Counted from the stretch's first letter, positions 1-64,000 are shown. The stretch is DNA of 64,000 nt from Bryobacterales bacterium (GCA_963744775.1 CAVUVG010000009.1:612-64611); one strand, 5' to 3'. Numbers and translations are program-made. The notes: a model not told the origin generated them from the letters alone.

Positions 1-867
1 CTTTGGGACATCAGGGGGAAGATCCTGGGTCTGCCTGTCTACAAAATGCTGGGCGGTCCCTACGATCCCCAAGGCGTCCGCGGCTATATCGGTGTTGGCG
101 GCAATCCCGAACAGCTTCGGAAATTACGAGAGAGTAATACTAACCTGGGAGTCACTTGCGTCAAATCCGGGTTGCCTTCCTATCTCGGGTGGATCGAGAC
201 CCACGCCAAGATCGACCAGGCGGTGCGCCAGATGCAAGGGCTGCGCGAAGCGCTGGGTCCCGACATCGACATCGCCATGGACTTCCATGGCAGGACCAGT
301 CCCAGCGTGGCGAGCGTCATCATCAAGGCGGTGGAGCCGCTAGGTCTTCTGTTTGTCGAGGAACCGATCCCTCCGGAAAACGTGAAGGCGCTGGCCAAGA
401 TTTCCAGGAGAACTTCAACACCGATCGCGACAGGTGAACGCGCAGTATCGCACTACGCCTGCCGGGAGCTGATCGAGATGGGCGTCGTGGACGTTCTACA
501 GCCGGACATCAATCACGTCGGCGGGATCACGGCGATGTGGAAAGTGGCCATGATGGCGTCCGTGTCGGGCATCACGATCTCGCCCCACGCCGCTGCGGGC
601 CCGATCGGCAAGATTGCTTCGCTGCATGTGGATTCCGCTATTCCAAATTTTCTGGTCCAGGAAGGCGCGCGTGCCAGCGGCACCAGCATTCTGGACGAGT
701 GGTTCGGATTCCCGGCCATGCTCATGGTGAACGGCAAATGTCCCCTGCCGGAGAAGCCCGGACTTGGATTTGAGCTGTCGGAGTCGGTCTTCGAGAAGTA
801 TGTGATCAACCGTCCCGCCCTGATGGGGCGCGCGTTTCTGGAAGACGGTTCGGTGGCGCAGAGGTGA
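1..867 (+). CDS. Enolase-superfamily dehydratase (mandelate racemase/muconate lactonizing family, galactonate-dehydratase-like); 5' end lies outside the window
   Basis: Frame 1 is open from base 1 (LWDIRGKILGLPVYKMLGGP...), in frame with listed ORF 46..867, stop TGA 865-867. Barrel-domain motifs of the family are present: DIAMDFHGR, LLFVEEP, ATGER, VDVLQPD, HVGGIT. Confidence 0.8.
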   Translation, partial: LWDIRGKILGLPVYKMLGGPYDPQGVRGYIGVGGNPEQLRKLRESNTNLGVTCVKSGLPSYLGWIETHAKIDQAVRQMQGLREALGPDIDIAMDFHGRTSPSVASVIIKAVEPLGLLFVEEPIPPENVKALAKISRRTSTPIATGERAVSHYACRELIEMGVVDVLQPDINHVGGITAMWKVAMMASVSGITISPHAAAGPIGKIASLHVDSAIPNFLVQEGARASGTSILDEWFGFPAMLMVNGKCPLPEKPGLGFELSESVFEKYVINRPALMGRAFLEDGSVAQR

Positions 868-871
868 GCTG

Positions 872-2098
872 ATGAGAGTGAAGACGAGCCGCAGAGAGTT
901 CCTTTCCGCGCTGGCGCTGGCGGGCGCGGCGCAGAGCGTGATGCCGGCGGCCTATGCCGCTCAGGCGAAGACGCTGAACCTGAAGATCACACAATTGAAG
1001 ACCTTCATAGTGGCCGGGGCCGGCGTCTTCGTTAAGGTCTATACGGACCAGGGACTGGTCGGGTTGGGTGAGGGCTCGATCACGAGCAAGGAACCGACGG
1101 TGGCCCAGGCCATCATGGAAAACGAACGGTTTCTGGTGGGCAAGGACCCCGCCGACATCGAGTTCCTGTACCAGGGCATGTTCCGCAACCCGAGGTGGCG
1201 CGGCGGGCCGATGCTCAACAGCGGGATCAGTGCCATAGAGATCGCGCTGTGGGACATCCTGGGCCAGGCGCTGGGCGTGCCGATCTACAAGCTGCTGGGC
1301 GGCGCGGCGCGGCAGCGAGTAAGGCTGTACCTGGATGTCAGCGGCTCCCCCGAGAACTTCTTAAAGGCCAAAGCCGCTGGCTTCACGGCGGCGAAGTCGG
1401 GCTTCATCACGGTTCAGAACCAGTTGGTGGAGCCACCGATGGCGGTTCGCGAGGCTGTAAGTAAGCTGGAGGCGGTGCGGAAGGCGGTTGGAGACGACTT
1501 CGACATCTGCATCGACGCCCACGGCCAACTGACTCCGGTGATGGCGGTGGAGTTCTGCACGCGGATCGAGGAACTGCGGCCGTTCTTCGTGGAAGAGGCG
1601 ACACAGATCGAGGACTTCGAGGAACTCGCCCACCTGCGCCAGAAGACGAAAGTGCCGCTGGCGACCGGGGAGCGCGCCTTCACCAAGTACGGTTTCACGG
1701 AGTTCTGCGAGCGCCACCTGGTGGATTACATCCAGCCCGACGTGTGTCACGCCGGGGGCATCCTGGAGTTGAAGAAGATCGGCGCCATCGCCGAGGCCCA
1801 CCGCGTGGAAATGTCCCCGCACAACCCGCAGGGCATCGTGAGCACGCTGGCGTCGATACACGTCAACGCGACCACACCCGCGGCGACGATTCTGGAGTAC
1901 TCAACCGGACGGCAGACCGGCTGGATGCTGGATCTGTTCAAGGGGACGTCCATCGCGATCAAGGATGGCTACGCGGAACTTCCGACCCGCCCAGGGCTGG
2001 GGGCCGAGCTGGATGAAGCGGTGGCGGCGAAGCACCCCTACAAGCCGGTAAACCGCCCCGGTTACCGTTTCGCCGACGGGGGCATCGCAGACTATTGA
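872..2098 (+). CDS. Enolase-superfamily (MR/MLE) enzyme with twin-arginine-type leader
   Basis: ATG 872 lies 4 nt after the previous stop. N-terminus is MRVKTSRREFLSALALAGAAQSVMPAAYA (RR-x-F-L plus hydrophobic stretch plus A-x-A). Family motifs: ALWDILG, DICIDAHGQ, FFVEEA, ATGER, DYIQPD. Confidence 0.8.
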   Translation: MRVKTSRREFLSALALAGAAQSVMPAAYAAQAKTLNLKITQLKTFIVAGAGVFVKVYTDQGLVGLGEGSITSKEPTVAQAIMENERFLVGKDPADIEFLYQGMFRNPRWRGGPMLNSGISAIEIALWDILGQALGVPIYKLLGGAARQRVRLYLDVSGSPENFLKAKAAGFTAAKSGFITVQNQLVEPPMAVREAVSKLEAVRKAVGDDFDICIDAHGQLTPVMAVEFCTRIEELRPFFVEEATQIEDFEELAHLRQKTKVPLATGERAFTKYGFTEFCERHLVDYIQPDVCHAGGILELKKIGAIAEAHRVEMSPHNPQGIVSTLASIHVNATTPAATILEYSTGRQTGWMLDLFKGTSIAIKDGYAELPTRPGLGAELDEAVAAKHPYKPVNRPGYRFADGGIADY

Positions 2099-2100: not shown

Positions 2101-3225
2101 CTACGCGCCGCGGCGTTGGCCGAAATTCGGGTCGGGCGTCAACGGCCCCATCCACTGCAGGTGCAGATTGATGTTGGGGTGCACCCTGTAGTTCCTCTTG
2201 AGCGCGGCGATGGTCTCGCCGCGCACGTCGATCCTGGCGATGTCATAGTTGCCCAGGCCGAACTGCTCGCAGTACTGCAAATAGCCGACCCACTTGGGCT
2301 CAATCCCCATGATCTCGGTCGCTACACGATCAGCCGCGATGTAATCCAGTGAGGCGAAGGCCACGCGATGCGGCACGGGCTGTCCCGAAACCGGGCCATC
2401 ACCTTCCATGCCCTCATAGCCGTCCACCACGGTGGCGCCCCAGAACGGCGCCATCTTCTGCGCCGCCAGGAGCAGGTTGTAGTTCATCTGGTGCGGGCCC
2501 ATGTGGAACTTCGTCTTGTCGGTCCAGCGCGAGTCCTTCCGGCCGCTGCGCAGCGTCCCACCCACCGCCATATTCTTGACCGCCGCCGTCATCACCACGG
2601 CGTTGTGCATCTTCGGGATGCAGGCGTCGAGGATGAAGGCGTCGGGATCCAGCAGCCGTTTGGCGACGCGAATCATCTGCGGGTGCACGTTGTAAGTCAG
2701 AATCCCCGCGGGCACATACAAGGCTTCGTCGTTCAGATCGATCAGGCTGACTTTCTGGGACCGGAACTCCTTGACAAGCTGGTTGTACTTGAAGTTGTCG
2801 TAGCCCTCCATGGTGTCGCCAGAGGCCGACTCGGCGATCACCACCGGGCCCTTGAACCGTGGCGCCAGGTAATCCAGGATGCCGCGGATCGTATCCGCGT
2901 GAGTCGATGCGAGCTGGATCGTCACGCTGGTCAGATTGGGCTTGATGAGCACGTACTTCTTGCGGTTCAAGGCGGGCCGCAGTTCCGCATCGATGCCCAT
3001 GAGGGCCTCGTAAACCATCTTGCGGCGGTTTTCGCCCTTCACCAGCGAGACAGTAGAGCGGCGCCTGCCACTGGGCGCCAGCGGCGGCGGTGGAAGGGTG
3101 AGTTTCGGCTCCGGGGGTTGCTGCGCCGCCAGAGGCACAGCGCCCGCCACTCCCAACGCTCCGGCGCTGGCCAAACGAAACAGGTTCCGGCGGGTAAGAT
3201 TGTCGTGCATTCTAAGCCTCCTCAA
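2101..3225 (-). CDS. DUF362 domain protein with twin-arginine-type leader
   Basis: 374-aa ORF. N-terminus has NLTRRNLFRLASAGALGVAGAVPLAAQ. The body (VLIKPNL..., PKMHNAVVMTAAVKNM) resembles DUF362 and the second DUF362-like gene at 48418..49404. Confidence 0.65.
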   Translation of the reverse strand: MRRLRMHDNLTRRNLFRLASAGALGVAGAVPLAAQQPPEPKLTLPPPPLAPSGRRRSTVSLVKGENRRKMVYEALMGIDAELRPALNRKKYVLIKPNLTSVTIQLASTHADTIRGILDYLAPRFKGPVVIAESASGDTMEGYDNFKYNQLVKEFRSQKVSLIDLNDEALYVPAGILTYNVHPQMIRVAKRLLDPDAFILDACIPKMHNAVVMTAAVKNMAVGGTLRSGRKDSRWTDKTKFHMGPHQMNYNLLLAAQKMAPFWGATVVDGYEGMEGDGPVSGQPVPHRVAFASLDYIAADRVATEIMGIEPKWVGYLQYCEQFGLGNYDIARIDVRGETIAALKRNYRVHPNINLHLQWMGPLTPDPNFGQRRGA

Positions 3226-4470
3226 TTACCAGTGCGTAACGGAGCCATCCGGCCGCAAGTAGAACAGCCGCCGCCCGGCCTCCGTCACCGAGCTGATGAA
3301 CTTGACCCGGTTCACATCCAGAGTGACGCCCAAGCCGGGCCGGTCATTGGTGTAGAGCCTGCCCTTGCGGAAGTCCAGGAACTCGGGCAGGTACTGGATG
3401 CCCCGGTCACCGTAATTGTACTCGAAAAGCACCGGGCCGGAGAACGTGGAGAGGCAGTGTACCAGGGCCGCCGTCGCAACCGGCCCCGTGAAATGCGGGA
3501 CGATTCCCACGGCATGCGTCTCGCACAGCGCCGCCACCTTCATCATCTCCGTGATCCCGCCGACATTGGGCAGCGTGGCGCGAATGTAGTCGATGTCGTG
3601 ATTCTCGATAAGCCGGTTGAAATCCCAGCGCTGGCCCCACTCCTCGCCGTGCGCCAGCGGGCAGATGGTCATCTGCCGCAGTTTGGGGATGTCCTGGAGC
3701 GCGTGCTCATCGCGCACCGGATCCTCTACCAGAAATGGTTCGTATTCCTCGATCAGCTTGCAGCAGCGCAGCGCGTCGGAGTAGTCGAACCTCTGGTGGA
3801 AATCGATGGCGAAGTCGCCTTTGCCGAGGCCTTCCCGCGCCGCCTTGCAGGCTTCGGCCACCAGGCGCACCCGCTCGCGGGAATTGTAGACGTTCTCGAT
3901 GATCGGAGTGGACCCGCCGGCGTCCATGCGATAGGCACGGAAGCCGGCCGCAATGGTTGCCGCGGCCGATTCCCGGATTCGGGCCAGTGGATCGGCGGCC
4001 GCCCCGGCGGGCCGCACATTGCCGGTGGAGTAGCACTCGCAGAAGTTGCGAAGCGAGCCGCCCAGGATCTGGTGGACTGGCGCGTTCAGGGCTTTGCCCT
4101 TGATGTCCCACAGGGCCAGGTCCATGGCGCCCTGCGCGTGTATCTTCTCCCGGCCCGGGGGGTAGAACCAGGAGATGTAGGTCTCCTGCCACAGGCGCTC
4201 GATCTGAAACGGATTCTGCCCGATCAGATTCCCGGCGCACTGTTCCAGGGTGTCCCGGGAGCCTCCTTCACCGACGCCCGTGATCCCGATGTCCGTCTCA
4301 ACCGTCACAAGCATGTTGCTCTGGTTGAACAGCCGGTTCACGTTCGGCGGCTCGTAGATATTGACCTTGGTGATTTTCGCCTTGGGCAGCGCCGCATCCA
4401 CCCGGCGCGGCCCAGCCAAACCGGCCACCGGAGCGGCGGCCAGTGATTTCAGAAAAGACCTTCGGAACAT
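3226..4470 (-). CDS. Enolase-superfamily (MR/MLE) enzyme with twin-arginine-type leader
   Basis: 414-aa ORF. N-terminus MFRRSFLKSLAAAPVAGLAG. Motifs ALWDIKGKAL, FAIDFHQR, FLVEDP, AHGEEW, IDYIRAT. It abuts the DUF362 start codon with no gap. Confidence 0.8.
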   Translation of the reverse strand: MFRRSFLKSLAAAPVAGLAGPRRVDAALPKAKITKVNIYEPPNVNRLFNQSNMLVTVETDIGITGVGEGGSRDTLEQCAGNLIGQNPFQIERLWQETYISWFYPPGREKIHAQGAMDLALWDIKGKALNAPVHQILGGSLRNFCECYSTGNVRPAGAAADPLARIRESAAATIAAGFRAYRMDAGGSTPIIENVYNSRERVRLVAEACKAAREGLGKGDFAIDFHQRFDYSDALRCCKLIEEYEPFLVEDPVRDEHALQDIPKLRQMTICPLAHGEEWGQRWDFNRLIENHDIDYIRATLPNVGGITEMMKVAALCETHAVGIVPHFTGPVATAALVHCLSTFSGPVLFEYNYGDRGIQYLPEFLDFRKGRLYTNDRPGLGVTLDVNRVKFISSVTEAGRRLFYLRPDGSVTHW

Positions 4471-13242: not shown

Positions 13243-15890
13243 GCTGGGCCAGCGTGGTTGCCGCCCGGCTGCGTGGCCTGTTCGAACACAAACGGCTGGA
13301 GCGCGAGCTGGACGATGAAGTTCGCTTTCACCTGGAGATGCAGATTGAGGACAACCTCAAGGCTGGCATGAATCCAGCAGAGGCGCGATATGCCGCACTG
13401 CGCAGCTTTGGAGCCATAGAGCCGATGAAGGAAAGCGTGCCGCGAACGATGGGCATTCGCCCTGGTCGAAACGACAGCGCAGGACATACGCTACGCGCTT
13501 CGGACTCTCCGCAAGAGCCCCGCCTTTACGACGACCGCCGTAGCCACACTGGCGCTGGCGATTGGCGCCAATACCGCAATGTTCAGCGTGCTGAATACGG
13601 TTCTGCTCCGGCCGCTTCCTTATCGAGCCCCAGAACAGTTGGCGATGTTGTGGAGCGAGATTCCGAGTCAGAGCGTGCGCGAAGGCAGGTCGGCATATCT
13701 GAGTGCCGAACAGTGGCGGAGCCAAAGCAAGAGCTTCGAGGACATGGCCGTCTTTGATCCTGTTTCCGTGACGCTCACGAGCGCCGACAGGGGCGGAACA
13801 GATAAGCGCCATCAGGATCTCACCCAACTTCTTTCTTTGCTTGGCGTTCAGCCCTTGCTGGGACGTAGTCTTCTCGGCCGAGGAGGCCGAGCAGCGGCAA
13901 CGTTTGGCCCTGATCAGTCATCGCTTCTGGCAAACTCGTTTCGGAGGCTCGCCCGATGCGATCGGCGCGTCCATCGAGATGGACGGCCTTCCTTCCCGGG
14001 TCATCGGCATCCTTCCCGCGGCCCTGCAATCCGCGCGACTCGACGCGGATGTGTGGGAGCCGCACACGATGTTTCCGGATTGGGAGACCCGGCGCGGCGC
14101 GCTTGGCTCGGGTTCGTGGTTCGTCATGGGGAGACTTCGACCGAACGTAACTGTCGAGCAGGCCCAGGCGGAGATGAGCGCGATCGCGCGCCGTCTCGAC
14201 GAGCGGATGCCGGCGGCCGAGCGGAACCGGGGCATCAGCGTAGTGCCGTTGAGCCTTCATGTGATCGGATCCAGGCCGCGGTTGGCATTGTGGATGCTCA
14301 CAGGCGCGGTTTTTTGTGTTCTGCTCATCGCCGCGGCCAACGTCACGAGCCTCTCGCTGGCGCGCAGCGCCGGCCGCGCCCGTGAAATCGCCATGCGAGC
14401 CGCTCTCGGAGCAAGTCCTGCACGGATCGTGCGGCAGTTGCTCGCCGAAAGTGTGACTCTCGCCGCCATAGCGGGCCTTATAGGGTCATTGCTGGCCTAG
14501 GCGGGCATACGCCTCATCCGGGCCCTCGAGGCCGGGCGACCTGCCTCGCCTGAATGAGGTCAGCCTCGATCCGCGAGTGCTCGGCTGGGCCTTGGCGGTT
14601 TCCCTGCTCACCGGAATCCTGGTTGGACTGGCGCCCGCGATAACTATGTTGCGCCGGAACTTGACGGCCTTCCGGCCAGGAAGGCGGAAGGGGCGTCTCA
14701 GGCGGAGTTGCCACGCGCGGAATCCGCCGCGCTCTCGTGGTGGCGGAATTTGCGCTGGCGATCATTCTGCTGGTCGGCGCCGGCCTGCTGGTCCGAAGCT
14801 GGTGGTCATGTTGAGAGCGTCGATCCGGGATTCAGGACTGAGCGGGTCCTTTCGATGCAGCTCTCCACTGCGGCCTACAGGGCAAATGCGCAACGGGCCA
14901 ATTTCTACAACCGCGTGCTCGAACAGATTGAAGCGCTGCCCGGCGTGGAGAGTGCCGGCATTGTCGGCGATCTTTTCATCGGTGGCAACCCGGAACAGAC
15001 CATCACCACCGAAGGGGACGCCCGAACCATTGCGGCGCGCCTGCGGTTCCGAAGAGACGAGGTTAGCGAGGGATTCTTCAAGGCCATCGGGACTCCTTTA
15101 CTCAGGGGGCGCTTCTTTTCGTTCGAGGACGGGCCGGATTCTCCGCGCGTAGCGATCATCAACGATACGATGGCGCGCCGCTTGTGGCCCGGGCGCGATC
15201 CGGTGGGCAAGAGATTCAAGATCGGCGCCGGGGATTCGGACAGGCCGTGGTTTACAGTCGTCGGAGTTGTGGGCGACATGCGCCGCCAGGGACTGGAGAA
15301 CGAACCGATCCCGCAGATGTTCGAGCCGCTGGCGCAGAATCCTTCCCGGCTCGCGACACTTCTGGTGCGAACGTCCATGGATGACCCGCTGAAGATAGTA
15401 GGGACGATACAAGCTGCCGTGCGCCAGGTGGAAAAGCGCGCGCCGCTCTATGGCGTGACGACCCTGGAGAGACGGCTCGGCGCCTTCCTGACGCAGCGCC
15501 GGTTCCAGACCGCGCTCTTGATTGGATTTTCCGTAGTTGCGCTCCTGATGGCCGCCATCGGGATCTACGGGCTCATCCAGTACTCTGATTGCAACGCGCA
15601 CGCACGAGATCGGTATCCGCATGGCCGTTGGCGCGCAGGCCGGCGAGATCTTCCGCATGATCATCCGTGAGGGGCTGAAGTTGAGCCTGGCTGGTCTGGT
15701 GCTGGGGCTGGTGGGAGCCTTGTGGGTGAGTCAGGCCGGCCGAAGCCTCCTGTTCGGCGTAAGCGCCACCGATCCGTTGACGTTCATTAGTGTTTCGCTG
15801 CTGCTGACCGCGGTCGCCACCGCAGCCTGCTACTTCCCGGCGCGGCGCGCCATGAAGGTCGAGCCCATAGTGGCGCTGCGGCAAGAGTGA
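13239..15890 (+). pseudogene. ADOP-type (MacB/FtsX-like duplicated) ABC permease, with at least 8 frame changes
   Basis: N-terminus MSWASVVAARLRGLFEHKRLERELDDEVRFHLEMQIEDNLKAGMNPAEARYAALRSFG. The remaining pieces are spread over ORFs 13579..14385, 13841..14500, 14577..15152, 14708..15670 and 15621..15890, ending ...ACYFPARRAMKVEPIVALRQE. Confidence 0.8.
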
Positions 15891-17018: not shown

Positions 17019-17048
17019 ACTATTGTAACTGCTAACCCCCGATTTAGC

Positions 17049-17768: not shown

Positions 17769-17813
17769 ATGCACTCCTTCTCCGCGCTCTCGGTGGACGC
17801 TCCTGAGCACCAC

Positions 17814-17866
17814 TGATTGTACATCCGACCACCCCTGCGGGAAGTTCCCCGCAACTTGTACAATCA
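17814..17866. promoter_or_regulatory. Nested inverted repeats in a divergent promoter region
   Basis: Outer arms TGATTGTACA (17814-17823) and TGTACAATCA (17857-17866) are perfect complements. The inner pair is TGCGGG/CCCGCA. Each outer arm contains a TGTACA palindromic core. Confidence 0.35.
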
Positions 17867-17873
17867 ACCGACG

Positions 17874-34813: not shown

Positions 34814-39395
<4,582 letters not shown>

Positions 39396-49404: not shown

Positions 49405-50620
49405 CAGACGCCCAGCAACTGGTGCGTTTCGGCGAGCTTTCGAGGAATCTCGAGCCCTTGCGGGCAGTGCGGCAGGCAGGTGCCGCAGGCGGCGCAGGAG
49501 TCGGCGCGGCGATCGAGCCGGGCATACAGGCGGCGCGCCACGCCGCGGTCGCCATAATCCACCGCATAGCGCTCGAAGCGCAGGATGTCCGCGATGGGCA
49601 CTCGCCGCGGGCAGAACTCCAGGCACTCGTTGCACAGGCGGCAGGCCTCCTGGTCGGCGTGCGCCACCATCATCTCGATCGCACGGCGGTCGCTGGCGCG
49701 CATGCTCTTGCCCGCGCCCGACACGGTATCGACGAACTGGCTCAGGCTGTTGATGCGAACCAGCGCCGCGTCGAGCTGCGAGGAAGTGGTCAGCCAGCGC
49801 GCCAGCGCGTGGTAGGGTGTCGTGCCGGCCGGGAACTTCTTCATGATCGCCTGATCCTGCGCCAGCCGCCCCACGCCCCGGGCGGTCTTCATGGCGACGG
49901 TGCCGAATCCCTTCTGCCGCGCCAGCGCCAGCAGCCGGTCCATGGCCGGCTCGTCTCCGTAGGAGTAGGCGAACTGCGCGTGCTCGTAGAGGCCGTCCTC
50001 GATGACCGCGGTCAGCACCTCGGCCGCGCTCTGCCCGCCTGGGACGCGGAAGTTGCCGTTGTAGCTGTGCTGGGAAAGGCACAGGTGCCGGACCAGCCCT
50101 TCCTTCTTCGAGGCGATCGAAGGCGCGGATGAAACCGCGGTTCTGCTTCACTTCGGCAACGTTGTGGTAGCCGAAGTGAAACTGCATATCGTCGAAGTAA
50201 CCCAGGCCGGAGCTCTTGGCGGACTCTTTGACGAGCCGGTAGTGCTCCTCGGTGTCGATGCGTGCCGCGTTCATGGTTGCCGCCCACGCGGTCCACGCAA
50301 ATGGTGCAATAGTGAGCCTCGCGGTTCTTGAGGATGCTTTTTGGCACCGCCCCGTCCGGCCACTCCGTGGCCTTGTGCCAGAAGTTGACGCCGCAGCGCA
50401 CACCGGCCTCCACGGCGTCGGGCGCCCAGTCGCCGGCCCCCACCATGACGCTGACTTCCCGCTTGCTGTAGCCCAGCTTCCGGCGCGGCAATTGCCCCAC
50501 CGCGCTGACCGCTTGGTCCATCTCCTGCACGGTCGCCGGTTTGGCACAGGCATTCATGCCCGCGCCCATTCCAGCCGCGAGCGCGGCACTGGATCTTTGG
50601 ATGAATTCCCGTCGCTGCAT
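49404..50620 (-). pseudogene. Aldo/keto-reductase-like oxidoreductase with C-terminal 2x[4Fe-4S] motifs and Tat leader; at least 3 frame changes between 50020 and 50350
   Basis: Leader MQRREFIQRSSAALAAGMGAGMNACA. C-terminal CRLCNECLEFCP and CAACGTCLPHCP lie in intact ORF 49404..50018. The middle is split over several frames. Confidence 0.65.
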
Positions 50621-50643
50621 ATTCTTCCTCCTGTTGTTCTGCG

Positions 50644-52730
50644 TTATGGAACGAGCTTCTTTTCGATCCCTCGCGCCAGCTCCACCAGCGCCTCCGCGAT
50701 CCGCGGATCCTGTTGGTAGGCTACCAGGCGCACAAAGTACGGTCCTTTGCGGAACGTGAGGCTGGCCCCGTACAGCCGGCCCTCCTGACCCAAGGCGACC
50801 GGCTTGCTGCCCGCCGCGGACTCGAATTCGAAGATCTTTCTTGCGCCCTCGGCGTCCTTCGTCACGTAGATGTCGGCCACGGCGTCGACTTTGTCCCGAT
50901 AACGGTAGTCGGCGGCGAGCGTGCGCACCATGCCCGCCCGGACATATTGTCGGCGGCGCCGTCGATATACTCCCACAGATCGTCCGCCGTGAAGGTGCGC
51001 GTTTCGGCCGTCCTGCTCCAACCTTTGACTTCGTTCGACTCCGGAAAAAGCGAGGCGGGGGGCGTCGCCACGGGCTTACTGAGCAGAATCTGGTTGATCT
51101 TCGAGCGGCTCTCGCCGATGCTGGTGACGTACACGGCCGGCCGGTCCCGCACCGGGCAGGCGAACTCGCAGGCGCCGCATCCCACGCAGCGCTCCGGGAC
51201 CACGTAGGGCTGGCGCACCTGTTTCACCGCGCCCGCGGCATCGGTGACGTCGGCGGGCCGGAGATAGATGGCCTTGGGAGACGTCGGGCACCACTCCTCG
51301 CAGACGATGCACTCGGTGGCCATCGACCAGGGCAGGCAGCGGCCGTGATCGTAGAACGCCGTGCCGATGCGGATGGGCTTCGCGTCCTTGGGTGCAGTTT
51401 CGCGCGGCCCAGGCCTTCTGGGCCAGCGTGAACTCCCAGATGGCGCCCGTGGGGCAGACCTGGCCGCAGAGCGTGCAACTCGGCTCGCAGTATCCGATGC
51501 GCGGCACCAGCACCGGCGTCCAGATACCCTCCACGCCCGGCCTGCGCGAGGGTCGGGATGCAGGGCGTTGTTCGGGCAGACCTTCATGCACTCGCCGCAG
51601 CGCACGCAGCGGTCGAGAAAGCTCTTCTCGTCCAGCGCGCCGGGCGGGCGGATGAGCCGCTCGTCTGGCTTCGACCGCCAGGCCCGGCGTCGCTGCGCAG
51701 CAGCGGCAACAGCGGCGGCGCCCGCCGCCAGTCTGGCGAGCGCCTTGCGGCGCTGCAGGTCCGGCCCCTCGATGGTGGCTTCGCGCGCGGGAAAGAACTT
51801 GAAGCGGAGCCCGCTCTCGGGGCAATCGTCCACGCAGTTCAGGCAGAGATGGCACTCGGCCTTGCGCCATTTGGCGCCGGGGATCGGATCGTCGCCGCCC
51901 TGGCAATGCAGCAGGCAGCGGTTGCAGTCCTCGCAGTTGCGCGGGGTGCTTCTCCAGGCCCAGAATCGACCAGCGCGACATCCAGCCCAGCAGCGCGCCC
52001 AGCGGGCACAGCGCCCGGCACCAGAAGCGCGTGATGCGCAGGTTCAGCGCCAGGATCGCGATGAAGAGCAGCCCCAGGAAGAAGCCCTGGCGGAAATACG
52101 GCTGCTTGAAGCTCAGCACCACCTGGCGCAGCAGGAAGTGCGAAGCACTTCGGCCAGCGATGCGCAGGACGCCGGAGCCGCTCTGGTACAGGGCGTCCAG
52201 ACAGCGCATTCAGAGCGTAGTTGAGCCCCGGCAGGATGGAGAGCGCCAGCGACCGCACGGTGAGCGAGATCGGGTCGAGCACGCCCGCCAGCGCAGCTGC
52301 CGAACAAGGCGGCCGCGCGAGCACGCGCGATCAGGATGTAGTACTTGAGCCGCTGCCAGCCCTTGTAGCGGTTGGAGTCGATGCGCTGCCGCCCGCGCTT
52401 CTTCTCCGACTTCCAGTCGCTGAAGAAATGATTCAGCGTGCCGAGCGGGCAAACCCAGCCGCAGAAGAACCGGCCCAGGAACAGCGTGGGGATGAGGATG
52501 ACCAGGCTCCAGATCAGGCCCTTGTAAAGGGCCCGCGTGGAGAGCGCGCTGGTGATGGCGACCAGCGGATCGGCTTCCAGGAAGATGCTGGCGGGGTAGG
52601 GAAGCCGTATGTCGCCCCTGGCGGCGCGCAGGGATTCAGGGGCCACGGTCTTGACCAGCAGGAACAGGAACAGGGCGAGGAAGACGATTTGGGAGGTGCG
52701 GCGCAGCCGGAGGAGTGCTCGATAGCTCAC
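50644..52730 (-). pseudogene. NapH/NapG-like fused membrane polyferredoxin with extra C-terminal domain; at least 5 frame changes
   Basis: Membrane part has FFCGWVCPLGTL and RFWCRALCPLGAL (CxxCP pairs). Cluster motifs: CEDCNRCLLHC, CHLCLNCVDDCP, CVRCGECMKVCP, CTLCGQVCP, CIVCEEWCP, CVGCGACEFACP. There is an internal RRKALARLAAGAAAV segment followed by LIRPPGAL (NapG-like). The tail is DLWEYIDGAADN...FVRLVAY. Confidence 0.65.
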
Positions 52731-53691: not shown

Positions 53692-56244
53692 CTACGGAAG
53701 TGTTATGACCGCGATCGGATGCGATTGCGAAACGCGGGTTCCGGCTATGACCGACAGTGGGACGCCAGGGCCGGCGGCTACCGCGGGCGAGATTCTGAAC
53801 CTCACGCCGTAAGTGTCGGTCTCTATCTCTGCTTCCGCCACTTCGAGTGCCGCATGCAGGACGCCTCCCAGGTTGATTGTGATCCGCCCGGGATTACTCA
53901 CCGCTGACGGGTCAGCGAGCCCGGAGACAGTCACCCACAAATCCTCTCCGGGAGCAGCCGGGCGGACAGAGTCGACGGCGATGTGGCCAAATGCAAAGAC
54001 TTCGTGAATGACAGGCGGAGGGAGTTCGATGGCGACAACCACTGGCTGGCTCGAAATTCCGGCGACTTTCAGCCGCAGGACAGCCGGGCCGAGGCCCAGC
54101 GCCGCCGGCACTTCAAACGTGATCCGCCCCGGCTCAACCGCCAGGATCTTGGCCTGGAGATCATTGAGCGTGATCTCGGCGGCCGGCGACTCTATTGGAG
54201 AAACCAGGTGGGCCACTGCGAGCGTCGCTTGCCCGCCGGCATAGACGCTGGCCTGGCCGGTGAGCGGATTGACAAGCACCGGATCCGCGACCGGAACATC
54301 GAGACGCGGAGCTTGAACCTGCAGCGCCTGCGGCTGCGTGGAGATCTGGAAACCGGAAACGACAGTCAATGCAGCCGAGGCCTGTGATGCGCCCTCGTTG
54401 ATGTGGACGTTGGCCAGCAACCTGTCCGGTCCCATCACCCAAACCCTGCGCACCGCCACGTCGCTCGTTCCGAAGCCCACGACTGCCTGACCCTCGGCGA
54501 AGTTGGTGTTCGCGCCGCGGATCTCGATCATCGCTTCAGAGCCGGCCGGAAGCGCGGAAGGCGACACGGTCACCGATGGCTGTGCAGCGGGCCCGTAAGT
54601 GTATTGGGGCGGGGAAGCGCTGTCCAGGAACATGGACCCCTGCCCGTCATCGTCCAGAGCGGTAACCACGGCCCGGAGATCCGGTGTTCCGGGTGGTGGA
54701 ACCACCGTCAACGCACCAGAGTCCTCATTCTGCGCGACGATGGGGGCCGGCCAGCCGTCGAAGAGAACACGCGTGAACGCCGTGAGGTTCGAACCGATCA
54801 GGATGGCGGTGGGTCTTCCGTCCTTCGGTTCTCCCGGCGTCACCGAGGCGATGGATGGCGGCTGGCTTCGCACCAGGTGCAGCCCAGCCGGCAACACAAA
54901 AATGCTCCCGTCGCGGGAAAAAACAAGGTGACGCGGGCCCTGACCACCAAAGGGGCTAAAGCTGAAGTCCAACTGGAGGAATGAAGGCGCTGTCTTGTAC
55001 GCCTTGACTCCATCTTCCATCACCGTGGCCGAGCCGCCTACCACGCCGGCCCCGAGTCCGGGGGCGGGGGCATCGTCAACGATGAGTCCGGCGCCGGCGG
55101 CCACCAGGAAGTTCCGGCCTGCGTTGTTGACGTTCACGAAGGCGGGCTTCACGGCGTAAGCGCCTGGGAAGCTATAAGTGGTCACGCCATAGAGATCCAG
55201 TGATCCGCGCGGCTTGACGGCAAAATCGTAACCAGCCAGCCGCTGGCCGGGCTGCGCGCTGACCATGGCCGCCTGAAGAACGCTCTTCGTATCGCGGTAG
55301 AACACGGTCTCGAACAACGGACCCGCGGGCACCGGTTTGCCGTCAGAGCCTACCGGGAGCACGATCTCCGCCGGGCCTAAGTCAGTTTGCTTGCCGGGCG
55401 GCAGCGGATGGACGTAGAGGTAATATTCGCCCGGGGACAAACCGGCGATCCGGTAGAAGCCATCAGGATCGGTAAGGGCGCTCACCGCGGTTCCTGCCGG
55501 ATCTAACGCCACGACAGACGCCATGTGCACCGCTTGGCCGTCCATCGTGACACGGCCTGAGATGCTGGCTGTCCCCGACAAAAAGCCGGGAGCCGGATAG
55601 AGCGTGGAGATGCCGGCCACATCGTCGGCCGCCAGGGGTCTCGAGCGCGTCGTGGAACGCGTCACCTCCGTGGACATCACGCTGGAGGTGAGCGTGTGCT
55701 GCAATCCAAGCGCGTGGCCGAATTCATGCACCAAAGTCAGGAAGACAGCCTCGCTATAGCTGGGGCGCTGGGAGAGGTCCTTCGGAAGCTTCAGAACGGA
55801 ACGTGTAATGGGAACGAATGACCCAGTCTCGCCTGTAACCAAGGGGGAACGTGAGGTGGGCCCCCCCAGCGCCACCAGACCTGCCGGCAACTCGTTCGGC
55901 TCAACAAAGATGACATCGATTCCGGGCGTTTTCTGCTCGGTCCCGGGAGCCGCGAAGCCGCCAAACTCAATTCTCAATCCGGAAGTCTGAACGTCGCTCC
56001 ACACGCGGGCCGCGGCGCGGATCTGGCTGAGCAGTGCGGGAAAACCAGCCCCAACCATCTGAGGGCCGTTTTCCGGAATGAAGAAGTAGAGCGTTCGATT
56101 CGGAAGCGCGTTCAGGTCGAATTTTTCGGGCACGGAAACGATCCGGCCCTCGGTGTTGGTGTAATGAACGAACTGGTAGTGAGCAAAAGCGACGTTGCCC
56201 AGAAGCAACACAACCGCCAGCGCAACCAAACCGGATCGCTTCAT
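53692..56244 (-). CDS. Secreted zinc metalloprotease (matrixin/M10-like HExxHxxGxxH) with carboxypeptidase-regulatory-like and repeated Ig-like (IPT/TIG-like) domains
   Basis: Signal MKRSGLVALAVVLLLGNVAFA at internal ATG 56244. LVHEFGHALGLQHT plus a downstream SVMS (Met-turn). GRVTMDG...GFYRIAGLSPGEY is CarboxypepD_reg-like. The long C-terminal region contains repeats. Confidence 0.7.
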   Translation of the reverse strand: MKRSGLVALAVVLLLGNVAFAHYQFVHYTNTEGRIVSVPEKFDLNALPNRTLYFFIPENGPQMVGAGFPALLSQIRAAARVWSDVQTSGLRIEFGGFAAPGTEQKTPGIDVIFVEPNELPAGLVALGGPTSRSPLVTGETGSFVPITRSVLKLPKDLSQRPSYSEAVFLTLVHEFGHALGLQHTLTSSVMSTEVTRSTTRSRPLAADDVAGISTLYPAPGFLSGTASISGRVTMDGQAVHMASVVALDPAGTAVSALTDPDGFYRIAGLSPGEYYLYVHPLPPGKQTDLGPAEIVLPVGSDGKPVPAGPLFETVFYRDTKSVLQAAMVSAQPGQRLAGYDFAVKPRGSLDLYGVTTYSFPGAYAVKPAFVNVNNAGRNFLVAAGAGLIVDDAPAPGLGAGVVGGSATVMEDGVKAYKTAPSFLQLDFSFSPFGGQGPRHLVFSRDGSIFVLPAGLHLVRSQPPSIASVTPGEPKDGRPTAILIGSNLTAFTRVLFDGWPAPIVAQNEDSGALTVVPPPGTPDLRAVVTALDDDGQGSMFLDSASPPQYTYGPAAQPSVTVSPSALPAGSEAMIEIRGANTNFAEGQAVVGFGTSDVAVRRVWVMGPDRLLANVHINEGASQASAALTVVSGFQISTQPQALQVQAPRLDVPVADPVLVNPLTGQASVYAGGQATLAVAHLVSPIESPAAEITLNDLQAKILAVEPGRITFEVPAALGLGPAVLRLKVAGISSQPVVVAIELPPPVIHEVFAFGHIAVDSVRPAAPGEDLWVTVSGLADPSAVSNPGRITINLGGVLHAALEVAEAEIETDTYGVRFRISPAVAAGPGVPLSVIAGTRVSQSHPIAVITLP

Positions 56245-56377
56245 TATTAAGACAGTCACTCTGCATTTCGCCTGCCATGTCATCCCCTTATGAATTAATA
56301 AGATAGGGAGACAATGAGCGGGTTCGTGTATAGGGGCGACGCAGGGCCGTGGCAGGGTGTCCCAGGGGCCGAGCCTC

Positions 56378-58243
56378 TCAGGCCGGCGGGTGGGGCCCAT
56401 GCACGATCATGATGGGGGCGTCGATCTGGTGGCGAACGCCATCGATGGTGGTGCCGAACACCAGGTCCTGCAGTCCCTTGTGACCGTGTGCTCCCATCAC
56501 CACCAGATCGGGGTGGAGTTCCCGCGCGAATTGCACGATCTCCTGTTTCGGACGGCTCGAATAGCGGATCACGGCCTCGACATCCACGGCTTGTTCCCGG
56601 AGCGTTTGGGCTATGTTCTCCAGGTACTCTAACCCGGCCTCAACCTCGGCCGTGGAGGATAAGGGCCCGTAGACCTGGCTGGTCACGTCTTCTTCCACGT
56701 GCAGCAGGTACAGTTTGGCGGAGTGCATACGGGCCAGCGCGGCGCCTTGCGCCACGGCCTGACGGTCGATTTCGGTGTGATCCAGGGGCACCAGAATCCG
56801 CCGGTAGGAGGGCGCGACAATTTCGGTCCCGATCTGCGTCGGAACTTCCACCGGAGCCCTCTTCACACGGCGCATCCAGTGCGCCAACAACGGCTCGAAG
56901 GTGACATATAGCAGCAGGGCCAACAGCAGCAACGCAAGAGGGACCACCACGGCGGCCAGCAGCCAGCGATACTCGCCGGCCGCCGCCAGCCACTCCCGAA
57001 TCGTGTCCACGACCAGGTGCAGGTTGAGGCTGACGATGATGCCCGCCGCCGTCCAGGCCAGGATGCGAACCCACATCTTGTTGGCGAAGGAGCCCATTTT
57101 CCCGCGGTCGCTGGTGAAGTGAATCAACGGAATCACCGCGAACGGCAACTGCATGCTCAGGATAACCTGGCTGAGGATCAGCAGCTTGTAGGTCGCCCGC
57201 GTCGCCCGCGATGTAGATGGTGATGGCCGCGGGCACGATGGCCGCCATGCGTGTGATCAGCCGCCGCAGCCAGGGCCGCATGCGGAAGCTCAGGAAACCT
57301 TCCATGACGATCTGGCCGGCCATGGTGCCGGTCATGGTCGAGGACTGGCCCGAGCAGAGCAGGGCAACCGCGAACAACACGCCGGCCATGGTGGTCCCCA
57401 GCAGCGGCGCGAGCAGCAGGTGAGCCTGCTGGATCTCGGTGACCACGATGCCGCGCTTGAAGAACGTCGACGCGGCCAGGATCAGGATGGCGGCGTTGAT
57501 CAGCAGCGCGCCGTTCAGCGCGATTACGGAATCCACGAGGTTGAAGCGGCAAGCCGTCCGCTTGGCCGCCTCGCTGGCCTCGATGCGGCGCGTCTGCACC
57601 AGCGCGGAGTGCAGGTAGAGGTTGTGCGGCATCACGGTGGCGCCCAGGATGCCGATGGCGACATACAGGCTCTGATCCGTGAGCCGCGGCACCAGCCCGC
57701 CGAACACTTCGACCATGTCCGGCTTGGCCAGCAGGATCTCGACCAGGAAGCAGCCGCCGATGACGGTGATCATGCGAGAGCACGAAGCCCTCCAGCGCCC
57801 GGATGCCGAATCCGGCTGAGCCAAAGCACCAGCAGCGTATCCGCCGCCGTCAGCAGCACACCCGTGAGCAGCGGGATGTGAAAGAGAAGGTTCAGCCCGA
57901 TCGCCGCGCCCAGAACCTCCGCCAGATCGCAGGCCGCGATCGCGATCTCGCAGAGGAACCACAGCACGTAGTTCATGCGGCGTCGGGTAGGTCTCGCGGC
58001 AGGCCTGCGCCAGGTCCAGCCCCGCACGATGCCCAGCCGCGCGCTGAGCGTCTGGAGCAGGATGGCCATGAGGTTGGACATGACCAGCACCCAGAGCAAC
58101 TGGTAGCCGAAGCGCGCGCCGCCTTCCAGGTCCGTGGCCCAGTTGCCGGGGTCCATGTAGCCCACGCTGACCAGGTAGGCGGGGCCGGCGAAGGCGAACA
58201 TGCGCCGCCACAAGCGACGGCTGCGCGGTTTGCACCGAGGCAT
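56378..58243 (-). pseudogene. mntH: Nramp-family divalent metal transporter fused to a C-terminal universal stress protein domain; at least 4 frame changes above about 57150
   Basis: GYMDPGNWATDLEGGARFGY (DPGN motif), MPHNLYLHSALV and GQSSTMTGTMAGQIVMEGF. The tail [10 protein letters not shown]...LYLLHV...[19 protein letters not shown] (USP) lies in intact ORF 56378..57154. Confidence 0.8.
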
Positions 58244-58347
58244 GTACTTCGGGCAGGGAAGTGGGACGCCGGCGCCGCGCATCAGGCCCTGGCCTGCCTC
58301 CGTCTTCCGGCGTACGGATCGAGAGGAAAGCCGCGCCCCGATGCCAC

Positions 58348-60535
58348 TCAGGTCAGCAGCAGCCCGGCCATCACCGAGACCGGCACTGTAGCGCATCTCG
58401 ATGCGGTGCTTGCCCTCGTCGACAACCACGCCGCGAAGGCCGCGTAGGCTTCGTAGATCGGGCGCGCGCTTGCCGTCCACCCTGCCACCCAGCCCGGGAA
58501 ATAGCTGTCGCCCAAGATCGACCATGCCGCGGCAGCCCATCTCCGCCTCGAATGGTAACACGCCCGCTGTTGCTGCCGGGTGAGCTAACTGCGTCCGGCC
58601 GAGCACGTTTCCAGCGGCGGCGGTGCCTCCAACATAAAGGTCTTGCGCCGCAGATCCAACGAGCCGCCGTCCGTGATGGCCTGTGACTCGCCTTCTTCGC
58701 TGATCCGCTGAGCCTCGTGAACCGTCCACACGCGCGGAAACGCGTCGCGTGTTCCAGTAGACCTTCAGTCCGCTGGCTCCCTGGAAAACCTCCTGCTGGT
58801 TCGGGGCCGGCGGGTCGCGCTTCACCGTGTAGTTGACGCCGAAGATCTGCTTGGCGCGGGGTGTGTGCCAGGGCAGGCGCAGCAGGTTCACGGGGAGGCT
58901 GGCCACGTAGCCCCCAAACTGGTGGATGCCGTACCAGTCGCCGAAGTTGTAGGGTATGTCCTTGTCGGACACCTCCATGCGCACCGGCCAGGGGAGGCCT
59001 GCAAGTAGTCCGCAATGTCGGAGTGCGCGCGCCATCTCTTCAAGTACGAGGTTGCGATCTCTTCTCCTCGCGGTTGCGGCCAGTAGATTCCGGCCAGAGT
59101 TGCCGAACTCGATGAGCATCAGGCCCGAGCGCCAGCGCCGCCGCGGTCACGGGCGTGAAGTTGCCCCGCCTCCAGCCGTGAAGCAGGCCGGCCAGCAGCA
59201 GGGCGACCAGCGCGACCACCACGAAACGGTCGTCCCCCGGCGGCTTCTGCGCCACGACCAGCGCCGAACAGAGATGGTGAAGACGATCACCGCCAAAGAC
59301 CAGCCAGCGCCAGTGCTGCGCGGCGCTGCCACGGGGAGTCTTCTCGTATCAAGAAAGTGTCTATTCCATAAGCGATTAGAACGGAAATTCCAAAGTGATA
59401 GATGAATACAGCGAAAGAGGGCGTGCGGGCCTTCTCCACCATCGGAACCACCGCGTAGAGCATCCCGTGAAACACGTTATTCCGGCCGAGCGAAAACAGC
59501 AGGCCCCCGGCGGCAATGGCGGCAAAGATCCGAACCGGGAGCTGCTTCCAGGCCAGAGCCACCGCCAGCAGAGCCAGGGTCAGCGCGGCCACGCCGATGA
59601 ACGGGTCGGCGTGCCGGTTGGCGCCGGGGACCACGATCGCCAGCAGGGAAGTCGGGATCAGCGAATACTGCGCTATGGACGGTATAGGGAACCGGCTCGT
59701 TCCAGCCGCTGGGCTCGTCGGCGCTGACCCAGCGCTTGGCCAGCTTGCCGTACTCGTAGGCGGGAAGGGTCTGCAGGCCGCTCACCAGCACCAGGAAGAC
59801 CAGGAAGACCGCCGCCAGTTTGGTGACTTGCAGACGGGCGCTGTCCTTCCGGAAGAAGATGATACAGCCAGACGCCGCCGGCGGCCAGCGTCAGGAAGAT
59901 GGGGATCTGGTGGTGTCCCCCCAGCCATGCCATGCCGAAGAATGCGCCCGAGGCGGCGGCGCTGGCCACCGGCCGCTCGCCGCGCAGGCTGCGCAACATG
60001 TAAAGGAATACCAGCGGCGCCCAAACGGCGCTGTTCAGCATCTGCGGCCAGTCGGTGACCCCCACCCAGCCGCCCAAGCGCGAAGGCGCAGCCGGCGGCG
60101 ACCGAGGCGGTCCGGGACCGTTTCAAATCGCGGCACAGCAGGTAGGCGAACAATGCGGCCATGAAGTGAATCAGCACGAAGTACCAGTGCAGGTAAGCCT
60201 GGTGCATCCAGCCATGGCGCAGAGGGCAGCAGGAACAGGATCCAGTTCAACGGGTAGGCGACGCCGGGCTGCGCCTGGCCGATCAGCGACTGGCCGCCCC
60301 ACTGGTAAGGGTCCCAGAGCGGGATGCGCCCCCGGTGCCATTCGCCGGCCTGGAATTGAAACCACGGCAGCACCTGATTGGCCAGGTCCGGGCCCTCCAG
60401 CCAGGTGTACTGATTGGTAAGGACGATCTTCCAGAAAAAGCCGGCACAGATCAGGAACAAGAGAACGGGTCCGGCCAGGCGTGACATGCGCGGCCGTGCC
60501 TTGGCGAAGGTGTGCTGCCACTCGCTCGCAGCCAT
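58348..60535 (-). pseudogene. Large polytopic membrane protein, YfhO/GT-C-like; at least 6 frame changes
   Basis: N-terminus ...FFWKIVLTNQYTWLEGPDLANQVLPWFQFQAGEWHRGRIPLWDPYQWGGQSLIGQAQPGVAYPLNWI. Hydrophobic pieces lie in ORFs 59782.., 59673.., 59477.., 59287.., 59040.. and 57770... Confidence 0.45.
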
Positions 60536-62053: not shown

Positions 62054-62201
62054 GAGCGTCATCGTGGTCTAATCCGATCAGGGTGGTGGTTTTCGGCCAC
62101 TTCCATGGGTAGCAATCATACCGGCTATTGGCTGCAAAATCAAAGAGTTCCGATTTGGAAGCGAAGTTGCCATGCAAAGATTGGAGTTCAAGGAGGCTGC
62201 C

Positions 62202-64000
62202 ATGAAAGCGACGACGTTGAAGATCTTGGTTTTAAGCCTGGCCTTGACAGGAGTGATGTGGGCCGCCGATGAGGACGAAGATCCGGGCCAAGGCGTAGCC
62301 CGGGTCAGCCTGATCAACGGTGACGTCTCCGTGCGTCGTGGCGACTCCGGCGAAGTGGTGGCCGCGGCCGTCAACGCGCCGCTGGTGGTTCAGGATCAGG
62401 TCATCACGGGCAGCGCCTCTCGCGCGGAGGTCCAGTTCGACTGGGCGAACATGATCCGGTTGTCTTCCAATTCCGAGATCCGCCTGGCGGATCTGGAGAA
62501 CCGCAGGTACCTGATTCAGGTGGCGCAGGGAACTGTTACTTTCCGCGTGGCGCGCGAGTCCGACGCGGATGTCGAGATCAGCACGCCAAACGTGTCCGTG
62601 CGGCCGATGCGCAAGGGCTCTTACCGTATCACCGTGCAGGAGGACGGCGACTCCGAAATTACGGTGCGCTCCGGCGAAGCGGAGATCTTCACGCCTGGCG
62701 GTTCAGAGCGCCTTGGTTCCGGGCGCACGATGCTGGCGCGGGGTTCCGCATCCGATCCTGAGTATCGAATTGTGAGCGGCATCGGCAAAGACGGTTGGGA
62801 TCAGTGGAACGAGGAACGCGATCGCCGTTTCGAGGACGCCCAGGCCTATCGCTACGTGGATCGCAGCATCTATGGGGCCGAGGACCTGGAGGGCTATGGT
62901 TCCTGGGTCGATGTTGCACCTTATGGATGGGTTTGGTCACCGCGGGTGGCGGCCGGTTGGGCGCCCTATAGCTACGGCCGCTGGGCATGGATGGATTGGT
63001 ATGGATGGAACTGGGTCAGCTACGACCCCTGGGGTTGGGCGCCGTTCCACTATGGACGCTGGTTCTATGACAGCCCGCGCGGGTGGTGCTGGTATCCGGG
63101 GCCGCTGCGCACTCGTCAATACTGGCGCCCGGGACTGGTGGCGTTTTTCGGCTACGGCGGCTGGGGCGGTTTCCAGGCAGGTGCCGGCCTGGGCCACGTG
63201 GGCTGGGTGCCGCTGGCGCCGCATGAGCCCTTCCACCCCTGGTATGGACGCCGCTACTACAACGGCTACCGGAACGACATCGACAACAGCGTCAGGATCG
63301 TCAACAACACCAACATCGTGAGTGTGTACCGGAACGCGCGTGTCAACAACGCCGTGTCCGCGATGGAGGCCTCCCAGTTCGGGCGGGGAAGCGGCAACCC
63401 GGTGCGGGTGCGCGGCGACGAGCTGCGCCGCGTGGATCTGGTTCGGGGCCAGCTGCCCGTGGTTCCTGGCCGGGAGAGTCTCAGGGTATCCAACCGCCAG
63501 GTGGTGACGACACCCGAGCGAAGGGTGATCCCCAATGAGCGGTTCTTCAGCAGAACGCGGCCCGCGCCGGTGGACCGGGTGCCGTTCGAGCAGCAACAGC
63601 GGGGCATCGAACAGGTCACGCGCCGGACCTTCGGCGAGCCCGCGCCTGTCCGCCGGGTGGAACCGGCGGCCCCTGCACCTAGTGTTCAGGCGCCTACCGT
63701 TCGGCCCGTCCCAGTACCGGAGAGGCGGCAGCCAGTGGACAACGACAATTGGCGGCGATTTGAGCGAACCGCGCCTCGGGCCGAGCCGGCCGCTCCCTCC
63801 AGAACAATGGATGCGCCCAGGCGTGAGCCTCCGGTTTACCGGCCAGCTCCGGCCGAAACCCCCAGGCAGGAAGCGCCGGTCTACCGGCCAGTTCCGCGAA
63901 ACAACGACGAGCCGCGCAACAATTCACCGCAGATCCGGGTCAGCCCGCCGACCGTGAGAGAGCGGCAAGCCGCTCCGGCGCCGAGGACGGAATCTGCGCG
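62202..64000 (+). CDS. FecR-domain protein with Trp/Tyr/Gly-rich repeat region and Pro-rich tail; 3' end lies outside the window. Not in the supplied ORF track
   Basis: AGGAGG lies 5 nt before ATG 62202. I translated all 599 codons by hand and found no stop. Signal MKATTLKILVLSLALTGVMWA. FecR-like GVARVSLINGDVSVRRGDSGE...VITGSASRAEVQF. YGSWVDVAPYGWVWSP...WGWAPFHYGRWFY. Tail with PVYRP repeats. Confidence 0.75.
   Translation, partial: MKATTLKILVLSLALTGVMWAADEDEDPGQGVARVSLINGDVSVRRGDSGEVVAAAVNAPLVVQDQVITGSASRAEVQFDWANMIRLSSNSEIRLADLENRRYLIQVAQGTVTFRVARESDADVEISTPNVSVRPMRKGSYRITVQEDGDSEITVRSGEAEIFTPGGSERLGSGRTMLARGSASDPEYRIVSGIGKDGWDQWNEERDRRFEDAQAYRYVDRSIYGAEDLEGYGSWVDVAPYGWVWSPRVAAGWAPYSYGRWAWMDWYGWNWVSYDPWGWAPFHYGRWFYDSPRGWCWYPGPLRTRQYWRPGLVAFFGYGGWGGFQAGAGLGHVGWVPLAPHEPFHPWYGRRYYNGYRNDIDNSVRIVNNTNIVSVYRNARVNNAVSAMEASQFGRGSGNPVRVRGDELRRVDLVRGQLPVVPGRESLRVSNRQVVTTPERRVIPNERFFSRTRPAPVDRVPFEQQQRGIEQVTRRTFGEPAPVRRVEPAAPAPSVQAPTVRPVPVPERRQPVDNDNWRRFERTAPRAEPAAPSRTMDAPRREPPVYRPAPAETPRQEAPVYRPVPRNNDEPRNNSPQIRVSPPTVRERQAAPAPRTESA

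Follow-up and report, generated by a model that had tools for sequence, protein, structure and literature searches.

Kilobase-scale frameshift patches in a metagenome-assembled Bryobacteraceae genome and their probable origin as consensus errors

Frame breaks in the window and in close relatives

The window analysed here is a stretch of 64,000 nucleotides (nt) from a Bryobacterales bacterium (GCA_963744775.1, CAVUVG010000009.1:612-64611; G000:C9:612-64611 of assembly G000). It holds, among other genes, an ADOP-type permease gene, the row mreB-mreC-mreD-mrdA-rodA followed by an RNase E/G gene, gltB with a divergent LysR gene, genes for iron-sulphur (Fe-S) and NapH-like polyferredoxin proteins, and mntH. 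Five multi-kb patches cut through these genes; within them a 1-nt insertion or deletion (indel) breaks the reading frame every ~250-300 nt, and clean stretches lie between them. The deposited genome is a metagenome-assembled member of the Bryobacteraceae with 22 contigs, 3.61 Mb and 64% guanine plus cytosine (GC), and is estimated to be 63% complete with 1% contamination. The names carried by its close protein hits put it in the Bryobacteraceae, within the Acidobacteriota. Among species-representative genomes, the nearest ones come from other genera within that family: a 902-amino-acid (aa) protease, for example, is only 44% identical, and MreB 90%.

Three methods were applied to the window: tblastn; frameshift-aware alignment of protein to DNA with relatives' orthologues, using a purpose-written aligner that permits +1, -1, +2 and -2 steps; and a codon-usage hidden Markov model (HMM) with six coding frames and a non-coding state, which takes no homology as input. 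Positions from protein alignment are good to a few codons, unless DNA alignment confirms them, and closely spaced compensating pairs of indels escape the HMM. The HMM, working without homology, recovered all five patches together with long clean segments. The patches, the clean segment beside patch 2 and the events that frameshift-aware alignment places within that patch are as follows.

13790-15587, plus strand: patch 1, within the ADOP-type permease gene (13480-15887), 7 frame-breaking indels
20221-21514, plus strand: clean segment beside patch 2, mreB and the start of mreC
21509-28297, plus strand: patch 2, beginning 170 nt into mreC, spanning mreD, mrdA and rodA, and finishing where the RNase E/G gene ends, about 25-35 indels
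~21515, 21636 and 22175, plus strand: MreC, 3 events
22678, plus strand: MreD, 1 event, possibly 2
23093, 23283, 23944, 24162, 24576 and 24694, plus strand: MrdA, 6-7 events in total
24919, 25220, 25401, 25522 and 25556, plus strand: RodA, 5-6 events in total
up to 28297, plus strand: RNase E/G, 7-15 events
36984-39579, minus strand: patch 3, N-terminal ~800 codons of gltB and the start of the divergent LysR gene
50116-52294, minus strand: patch 4, Fe-S and NapH-like polyferredoxin genes, ~8 HMM switches
57194-60530, minus strand: patch 5, first two thirds of mntH (N-terminal side) with an unnamed gene upstream of it

When the mreB-mreC-mreD-mrdA-rodA-rne proteins of three relatives are searched with tblastn, MreB (20296-21318), directly upstream of patch 2, is found intact in a single frame, and each of the genes downstream of it is scattered across 2-6 frames. 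The three references are independent, and frameshift-aware alignment with each of them places the events from mreC to the RNase E/G gene at the same sites. In patch 3, gltB has eight insertion-type events, at 36984, 37679, 37689, 37984, 38045, 38547, 38641 and 38837, and its C-terminal 2.1 kb (34896-36983) is clean. After frame correction the gene product is 76-77% identical to orthologues of 1544-1549 aa across 1500 codons, with zero in-frame stops. The LysR gene start, on the plus strand, has one or two deletions at 39499-39579. In patch 5, six events fall in mntH (56402-58300), at 57194, 57774, 57811, 57980, 58025 and 58214; the C-terminal 790 nt (56402-57193) are clean, and the corrected protein is 70-73% identical to 644-aa orthologues. 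The remainder of that patch (58400-60530, minus strand) has clear coding potential and ~8 HMM frame switches.

The indels of the permease gene lie near 13790, 13834, 13872, 14528, 14668, 14805 and 15587, as placed by HMM segments and by comparison with the 802-aa orthologues of the relatives G012 and G009; these positions are approximate, the two references being just ~40% identical. In patch 4, matches to the Pfam families Fer4_5, Fer4, Fer4_7 and DUF6599 are scattered over four overlapping open frames at 50.6-52.8 kb, and partial alignment to a G012 protein gives events at 51423 and 51538. The edges of the patches are intragenic, in that the first 170 nt of mreC, the last 2.1 kb of gltB and the last 790 nt of mntH are clean; patch borders thus ignore gene structure.

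An earlier sequence-only reading of the window had claimed discrete frameshift blocks, and five such patches are borne out by tblastn, frameshift-aware alignment and the HMM. Its second block (21.5-28.3 kb, mreC to RNase E/G) corresponds to 21509-28297, its third (gltB and LysR) contains the eight and the one or two events given above, and its fourth is recovered at ~50.1-52.3 kb by Pfam domains in four frames and ~8 HMM switches. The first block, put at 13.2-15.7 kb with at least eight events, is real as a patch, although it starts at ~13.8 kb and has seven events; the frame change at 13455 is an ordinary gene border. For the fifth, the damage to mntH and the frame shifts up to 60.5 kb hold, and the label "YfhO-like" given to the upstream gene is not confirmed: no piece of this 58.4-60.5 kb gene matches a Pfam family, and the relatives are not syntenic there. 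Clean stretches between the blocks are recovered as well, and the "clean 725-codon" open reading frame (ORF) named among them is the C-terminal half of the gltB gene of the third block.

Isolated events had also been claimed near 9140 (a candidate in folK), 11130, 30060, 30475 and 44055. Those near 11130 and 44055 are found, with a second event in rsmE, and those near 30060 and 30475 are consistent with the Pfam layout.

10824 (-1) and 11133 (+1), both approximate, plus strand: isolated pair in rsmE, 310 nt thrown into another frame
30054-30480, minus strand: two probable isolated events, from the Pfam layout and an HMM switch at 30060
44040-44070, plus strand: isolated frameshift in a DUF3501 gene, split at ~44055

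With both shifts allowed, rsmE is 65% identical to its G009 orthologue across 274 codons. The DUF3501 Pfam profile is covered at positions 2-100 by one ORF (43540-44070) and at positions 106-187 by the next (44057-44323). At the minus-strand pair, the Pfam layout shows an argD-like aminotransferase that has no stop after its domain ends at ~30479, so that reading continues, and both the layout and the HMM show a frame change at ~30060 in a radical-SAM gene.

Two further observations concern genes in or beside the patches. An ORF of 711 codons (48421-50553, minus strand) combines a genuine DUF362 gene, matched by residues 480-674, with an open off-frame; its upstream part overlies a separate gene for a Fer4 protein (49407-50147), and it illustrates how open off-frames can pose as long ORFs in DNA of 64-67% GC. 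The NRAMP/MntH protein is ~644 aa long here and in three relatives, with a conserved C-terminal extension of ~200 residues past the end of the MntH profile.

A comparison at the level of DNA is given by two independent short-read metagenome contigs, which come from close relatives of the same lineage but a different strain. On the contig L081 (3916 nt, 95% nucleotide identity) the genes for MreB, MreC (342 aa) and MreD (177 aa) are all intact; in hundreds of related sequences MreD has 175-178 aa. The window aligns to L081 with no gap over the clean 20221-21514 (1294 nt), and has single extra bases at 21515, 21633, 22175, 22676 and 23092. The contig L055 (3214 nt, 91% identity) carries MreD together with MrdA as one unbroken frame of 637 aa; set against this contig, the window shows additional bases at 22175, 22676, 23093, 23283, 23946, 24160, 24164, 24921 and 25220, with bases missing from it at 24578 and 24692. 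The DNA differences from both contigs coincide with the sites predicted by protein alignment. One of them, at 23093, confirms an extra T in a TTT of mrdA that the sequence-only reading had identified. Over the clean 31910-34925, the contig L053 (97.4% identical) shows only three gaps, all of them in a 40-nt intergenic spacer (33333-33373). The 97%-identical contigs, L053 and L054, cover clean sequence only, and across the patches the nearest comparators are L081 (95%) and L055 (91%).

These contigs also reveal differences in gene content between strains. L081 joins window position 17028 straight to 20221, which amounts to a 3.2-kb indel between strains immediately upstream of mreB, and the genes at 17049-17867 (minus strand), 17817-19451 (plus strand) and 19290-20231 (minus strand) are without counterpart in that strain. 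L054, here 96-97% identical, joins 31720 to 33372 and hence is without the 563-codon ORF at 31641-33332, a second presence/absence difference at the strain level.

Extent, damage type and GC placement across the assembly

Because HMM switch counts take in normal gene borders, they have to be read against control genomes, for which we took 400 kb from a complete relative with 60% GC and 278 kb from a relative matched in GC (63.4%). Across the whole assembly the HMM counts 4469 frame switches on the same strand (1.24 per kb), compared with 0.31 per kb in the complete relative and 0.49 per kb in the GC-matched one under the same detector, and dense patches are present on all 22 of its 22 contigs. 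Windows of 2 kb with at least five switches make up 16.8% of the assembly and are absent from either control, where no 2-kb window exceeds four. If a patch is defined as a cluster of at least four switches spaced no more than 800 nt apart, there are 326 patches with a total length of 705 kb, or 19.5% of the genome (median 1.65 kb, maximum 14 kb), and inside them one switch occurs per 273 nt. The 66 patches of at least 3 kb share a homogeneous rate of 3.86 per kb (chi-square 51, 65 degrees of freedom; the clustering rule somewhat biases this test), as expected for a two-state process of corrected and uncorrected sequence. Outside the patches there are 0.54 switches per kb, slightly above the 0.31-0.49 of the controls, which implies that isolated errors occur as well and that the mosaic is clustered without being perfectly binary. 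The block-wise mosaic proposed from the window therefore holds as to clustering, and the diffuse isolated events depart from a strictly two-state picture. In total, the excess over the controls amounts to ~2,700-3,350 frame-breaking indels genome-wide.

The damage extends to genes that no cell can lack. The sole rpoB locus (C12:9164-13457) lies in five frame pieces and the sole rpoC in two, and proS and prfA, neither of which has a second copy in the assembly, have four frameshifts each. Since indispensable single-copy genes are broken, the deposited sequence cannot be that of a living genome; as deposited, and if real, it is incompatible with life.

The same contig, C12, has one of the densest patches, with 34 switches in 7 kb (51.4-58.5 kb), and its division-cluster paralogues ftsW and ftsI (56215-56719 and 63048-64322) are likewise in several frames.

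For a survey by homology, 57 orthologue pairs were drawn from 400 kb of the complete relative and aligned to the whole assembly. Frameshifts are present in 34 of the 57, and the 23,112 aligned codons contain 113 frameshifts in all but just 4 in-frame stops. The events comprise 82 of type +1, 18 of -1, 8 of +2 and 5 of -2, so that single-base insertions outnumber deletions by ~4:1; the HMM gives 1966 insertions to 942 deletions in patches, equal on both strands. Once the frame is corrected, the proteins are normally conserved, in agreement with the earlier statement that the protein within each segment looks undamaged: identities to relatives are 70-74% for MrdA, 68-74% for RodA and 76-77% for gltB. 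Within gltB, identity to relatives is 74.5-75.5% in the patch half and 77% in the clean half, and the two relatives differ from each other by an equal margin. Measured against that margin, the patch half is as conserved as the clean half, with no extra divergence.

The sequence-only reading had taken the indels to be mostly homopolymer errors, and this part does not hold, as they are mainly single-base insertions outside homopolymers. Runs of at least four identical bases lie within 6 nt of 6% of the +1 events, compared with 8% of random coding positions, so that homopolymers show no enrichment in this set. Among the insertions resolved to the base, 7 of 11 have no adjoining identical base, and G and C together make up 77% of the bases that were called as insertions.

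The patches follow GC content in part. Windows of 2 kb with at least five switches account for ~5% of those at GC 0.58-0.62, 38% at 0.66-0.68 and 69% at 0.68 or above (Spearman 0.40), and mean GC is 65.5% in patches and 63.2% elsewhere. The control genomes show no GC trend in switch density; because one of them is GC-matched, the link with GC is not a bias of the detector. GC as the sole determinant was considered and set aside, since within GC bins the counts are overdispersed (variance-to-mean ratio 1.7-2.1). The GC-adjusted residuals are autocorrelated at 2 kb (0.26) and not at 6 kb (0.04). GC is thus a risk factor, not a rule.

Origin of the frameshift patches

We consider it very probable that the frameshift blocks stem from errors in the assembly's consensus and not from mutations of the organism, and that the genes are intact in the cell. 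The blocks are an instance of a well-described problem, indel errors that fragment genes in long-read and hybrid assemblies, and are not a biological feature. The sequence-only reading had likewise preferred patchy consensus quality to gene loss, and its preference is now supported by the genome-wide pattern, the state of essential genes, the restriction of the damage to indels, the intragenic patch edges and the contigs of relatives.

From this pattern we infer a sequencing platform and a polishing history of the following kind. Error-prone long reads would have supplied the contigs, with correction limited to places that had accurate short reads or sufficient depth. Short-read libraries based on the polymerase chain reaction (PCR) under-sample GC-rich stretches, and such stretches would more often have been left uncorrected; patches without usable short-read support would retain the raw consensus. 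The genome would then alternate between accurate sequence and noisy-consensus patches, in which a spurious single base, usually an extra G or C, falls about every 260 nt. A constant in-patch rate, patches of kilobase size and a GC bias are together what is expected from noisy long reads corrected with thin, GC-biased short reads. As to the exact cause within the pipeline, polishing dropout, gap filling by a hybrid assembler, local dips in long-read depth and strain collapse are all candidate variants.

There are precedents for such a genome. A preprint on proovframe (bioRxiv 10.1101/2021.08.23.457338) is said to offer an example of partly corrected gene-fragmenting indels in long-read and hybrid assemblies. 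Such assemblies resemble the present one in that dense 1-nt indels split genes into pieces that are each conserved, in that completeness scores are low despite long contigs, and in that correction follows local coverage. Gene-fragmenting indel errors in long-read assemblies are treated in the work on Kastor (PMC12007338). In a soil nanopore assembly processed with Flye, Racon, Medaka and Pilon, with a PCR-enriched Illumina library, 70% of proteins were still truncated; Acidobacteriota were among its bins, and there were 18.5 contigs on average with an N50 near 224 kb (PMC8692599). Acidobacteriota bins of ~20 contigs with an N50 near 200 kb are typical of data sets of this kind.

With regard to the platform, the spectrum resembles PacBio continuous long read (CLR) error more closely than classic nanopore consensus error, as far as comparison with published error profiles can indicate. 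In PacBio CLR data insertions outnumber deletions. The indels there are ~15 times as frequent as substitutions and essentially random, with no homopolymer bias, as is the case here; PacBio coverage and error are, however, almost independent of GC (PMC4719071), unlike the GC link in this assembly, which would consequently have to stem from the correcting short-read data. Nanopore accuracy drops with GC (PMC8486125), and nanopore consensus errors are dominated by deletions, about half of them linked to homopolymers (PMC4719071, PMC8486125), whereas those seen here are dominated by insertions and are not linked to homopolymers. Homopolymer-length errors of the nanopore type were accordingly rejected as a specific explanation, given the lack of run enrichment, the 7 of 11 insertions not adjacent to an identical base and the ~4:1 excess of insertions over deletions.

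Several observations weigh against our account or parts of it. The contigs L081 and L055, at 91-95% identity, are not of the same strain as the window, and taken alone their differences from it could also be explained by insertions that this lineage acquired very recently. GC explains the placement of patches only partly: the third block has 62.9% GC, and the clean 28.3-37.0 kb has 65.1%. The homology-based survey shows a GC trend in the same direction (63.5% to 65.4%) that is not significant (n=45 genes, p ~0.1). Patches are not enriched at contig ends (1.12-1.18 versus 1.24 switches per kb, p above 0.6), which leaves a simple explanation by long-read depth unsupported. Finally, the insertion-rich, non-homopolymer spectrum is unlike classic nanopore consensus (PMC4719071, PMC8486125), and makes the platform uncertain.

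An artefact of a different kind would arise if strain heterogeneity had collapsed in the assembly, such that a long-read consensus mixed diverging haplotypes and emitted spurious insertions, with the patches marking strain-variable regions. Strains of 95-97% identity do occur in other metagenomes and are structurally different (17029-20220 is missing in L081 and 31721-33371 in L054), and mismatches to L081 are at 5-6.7% inside the patch as against ~3% in the clean mreB part. The latter difference is expected in any case, however, given how much more strongly mreB is conserved than either mreC or mreD; in gltB, the half inside the patch and the clean half are equally divergent from relatives, and neither the GC dependence nor the homogeneous in-patch rate is predicted by strain variability. 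We therefore regard strain collapse as improbable as the general explanation, and as possible in the role of a minor contributor.

That the indels are genuine, whether because wholesale genome decay has just begun or because some mechanism restores the frame at thousands of non-homopolymer sites, is very improbable. Under the former scenario, the elongasome, GOGAT and transporters would have been lost in a very recent and massive pseudogenisation, of the kind seen when genome reduction begins in host-restricted bacteria. The indels are, after all, present in the deposited sequence, the assembly is small (3.6 Mb, 63% complete; relatives have 5-8.8 Mb), and the closest comparators with intact genes are of other strains. 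A cell in which the sole rpoB, rpoC, proS and prfA are multiply frameshifted is not viable, however, and genes with 4-12 events each show no extra amino-acid divergence and only the 4 nonsense codons in 23,112. Mira, Ochman and Moran are said to have described bacterial pseudogene decay, in 2001, as deletion-biased, which is the opposite of the ~4:1 excess of insertions found here. Patches, moreover, cut genes and leave the other half perfect, and their probability follows GC content. Mycobacterium leprae and Sodalis glossinidius are like the present assembly in that a large share of their genes is interrupted; unlike it, they keep essential genes intact, they have nonsense mutations, deletions and insertion sequence (IS) insertions with a bias towards deletion, they accumulate substitutions, and their lesions do not lie in GC-linked, gene-blind patches of several kilobases. 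We rate this scenario as highly improbable. The latter scenario, in which programmed ribosomal frameshifting, transcriptional slippage or RNA editing restores the frames and real indels are harmless, would account for the well-conserved protein encoded by every frame segment, and rescue based on slippage is known in some endosymbionts. Yet ~3,000 sites would need rescue; their contexts, where resolved to the base, are heterogeneous with no common slippery motif or homopolymer; +1 and -1 events are both present; a 95%-identical relative is simply without the base; and confinement to GC-linked patches of several kilobases is not expected. Restoration of this kind is the least probable of the explanations considered, to the point of being scarcely credible.

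Consequences for gene content

If the patches are consensus errors, as we conclude, gene callers chop the genes within them into frame segments, and ~60% of the genes of this genome are mis-called. The completeness of 63% is probably deflated. Readings that rest on ORF borders inside patches, such as that of the polyferredoxin operon at 50-52.3 kb, need frame correction. GC-linked patches combined with an insertion-dominated, non-homopolymer spectrum may also serve as an automatic flag for similar assemblies. Inferences of pseudogenes, gene loss or split genes from this genome would be wrong, and the elongasome, GOGAT, the transporters and the RNA polymerase of the organism are to be taken as intact.

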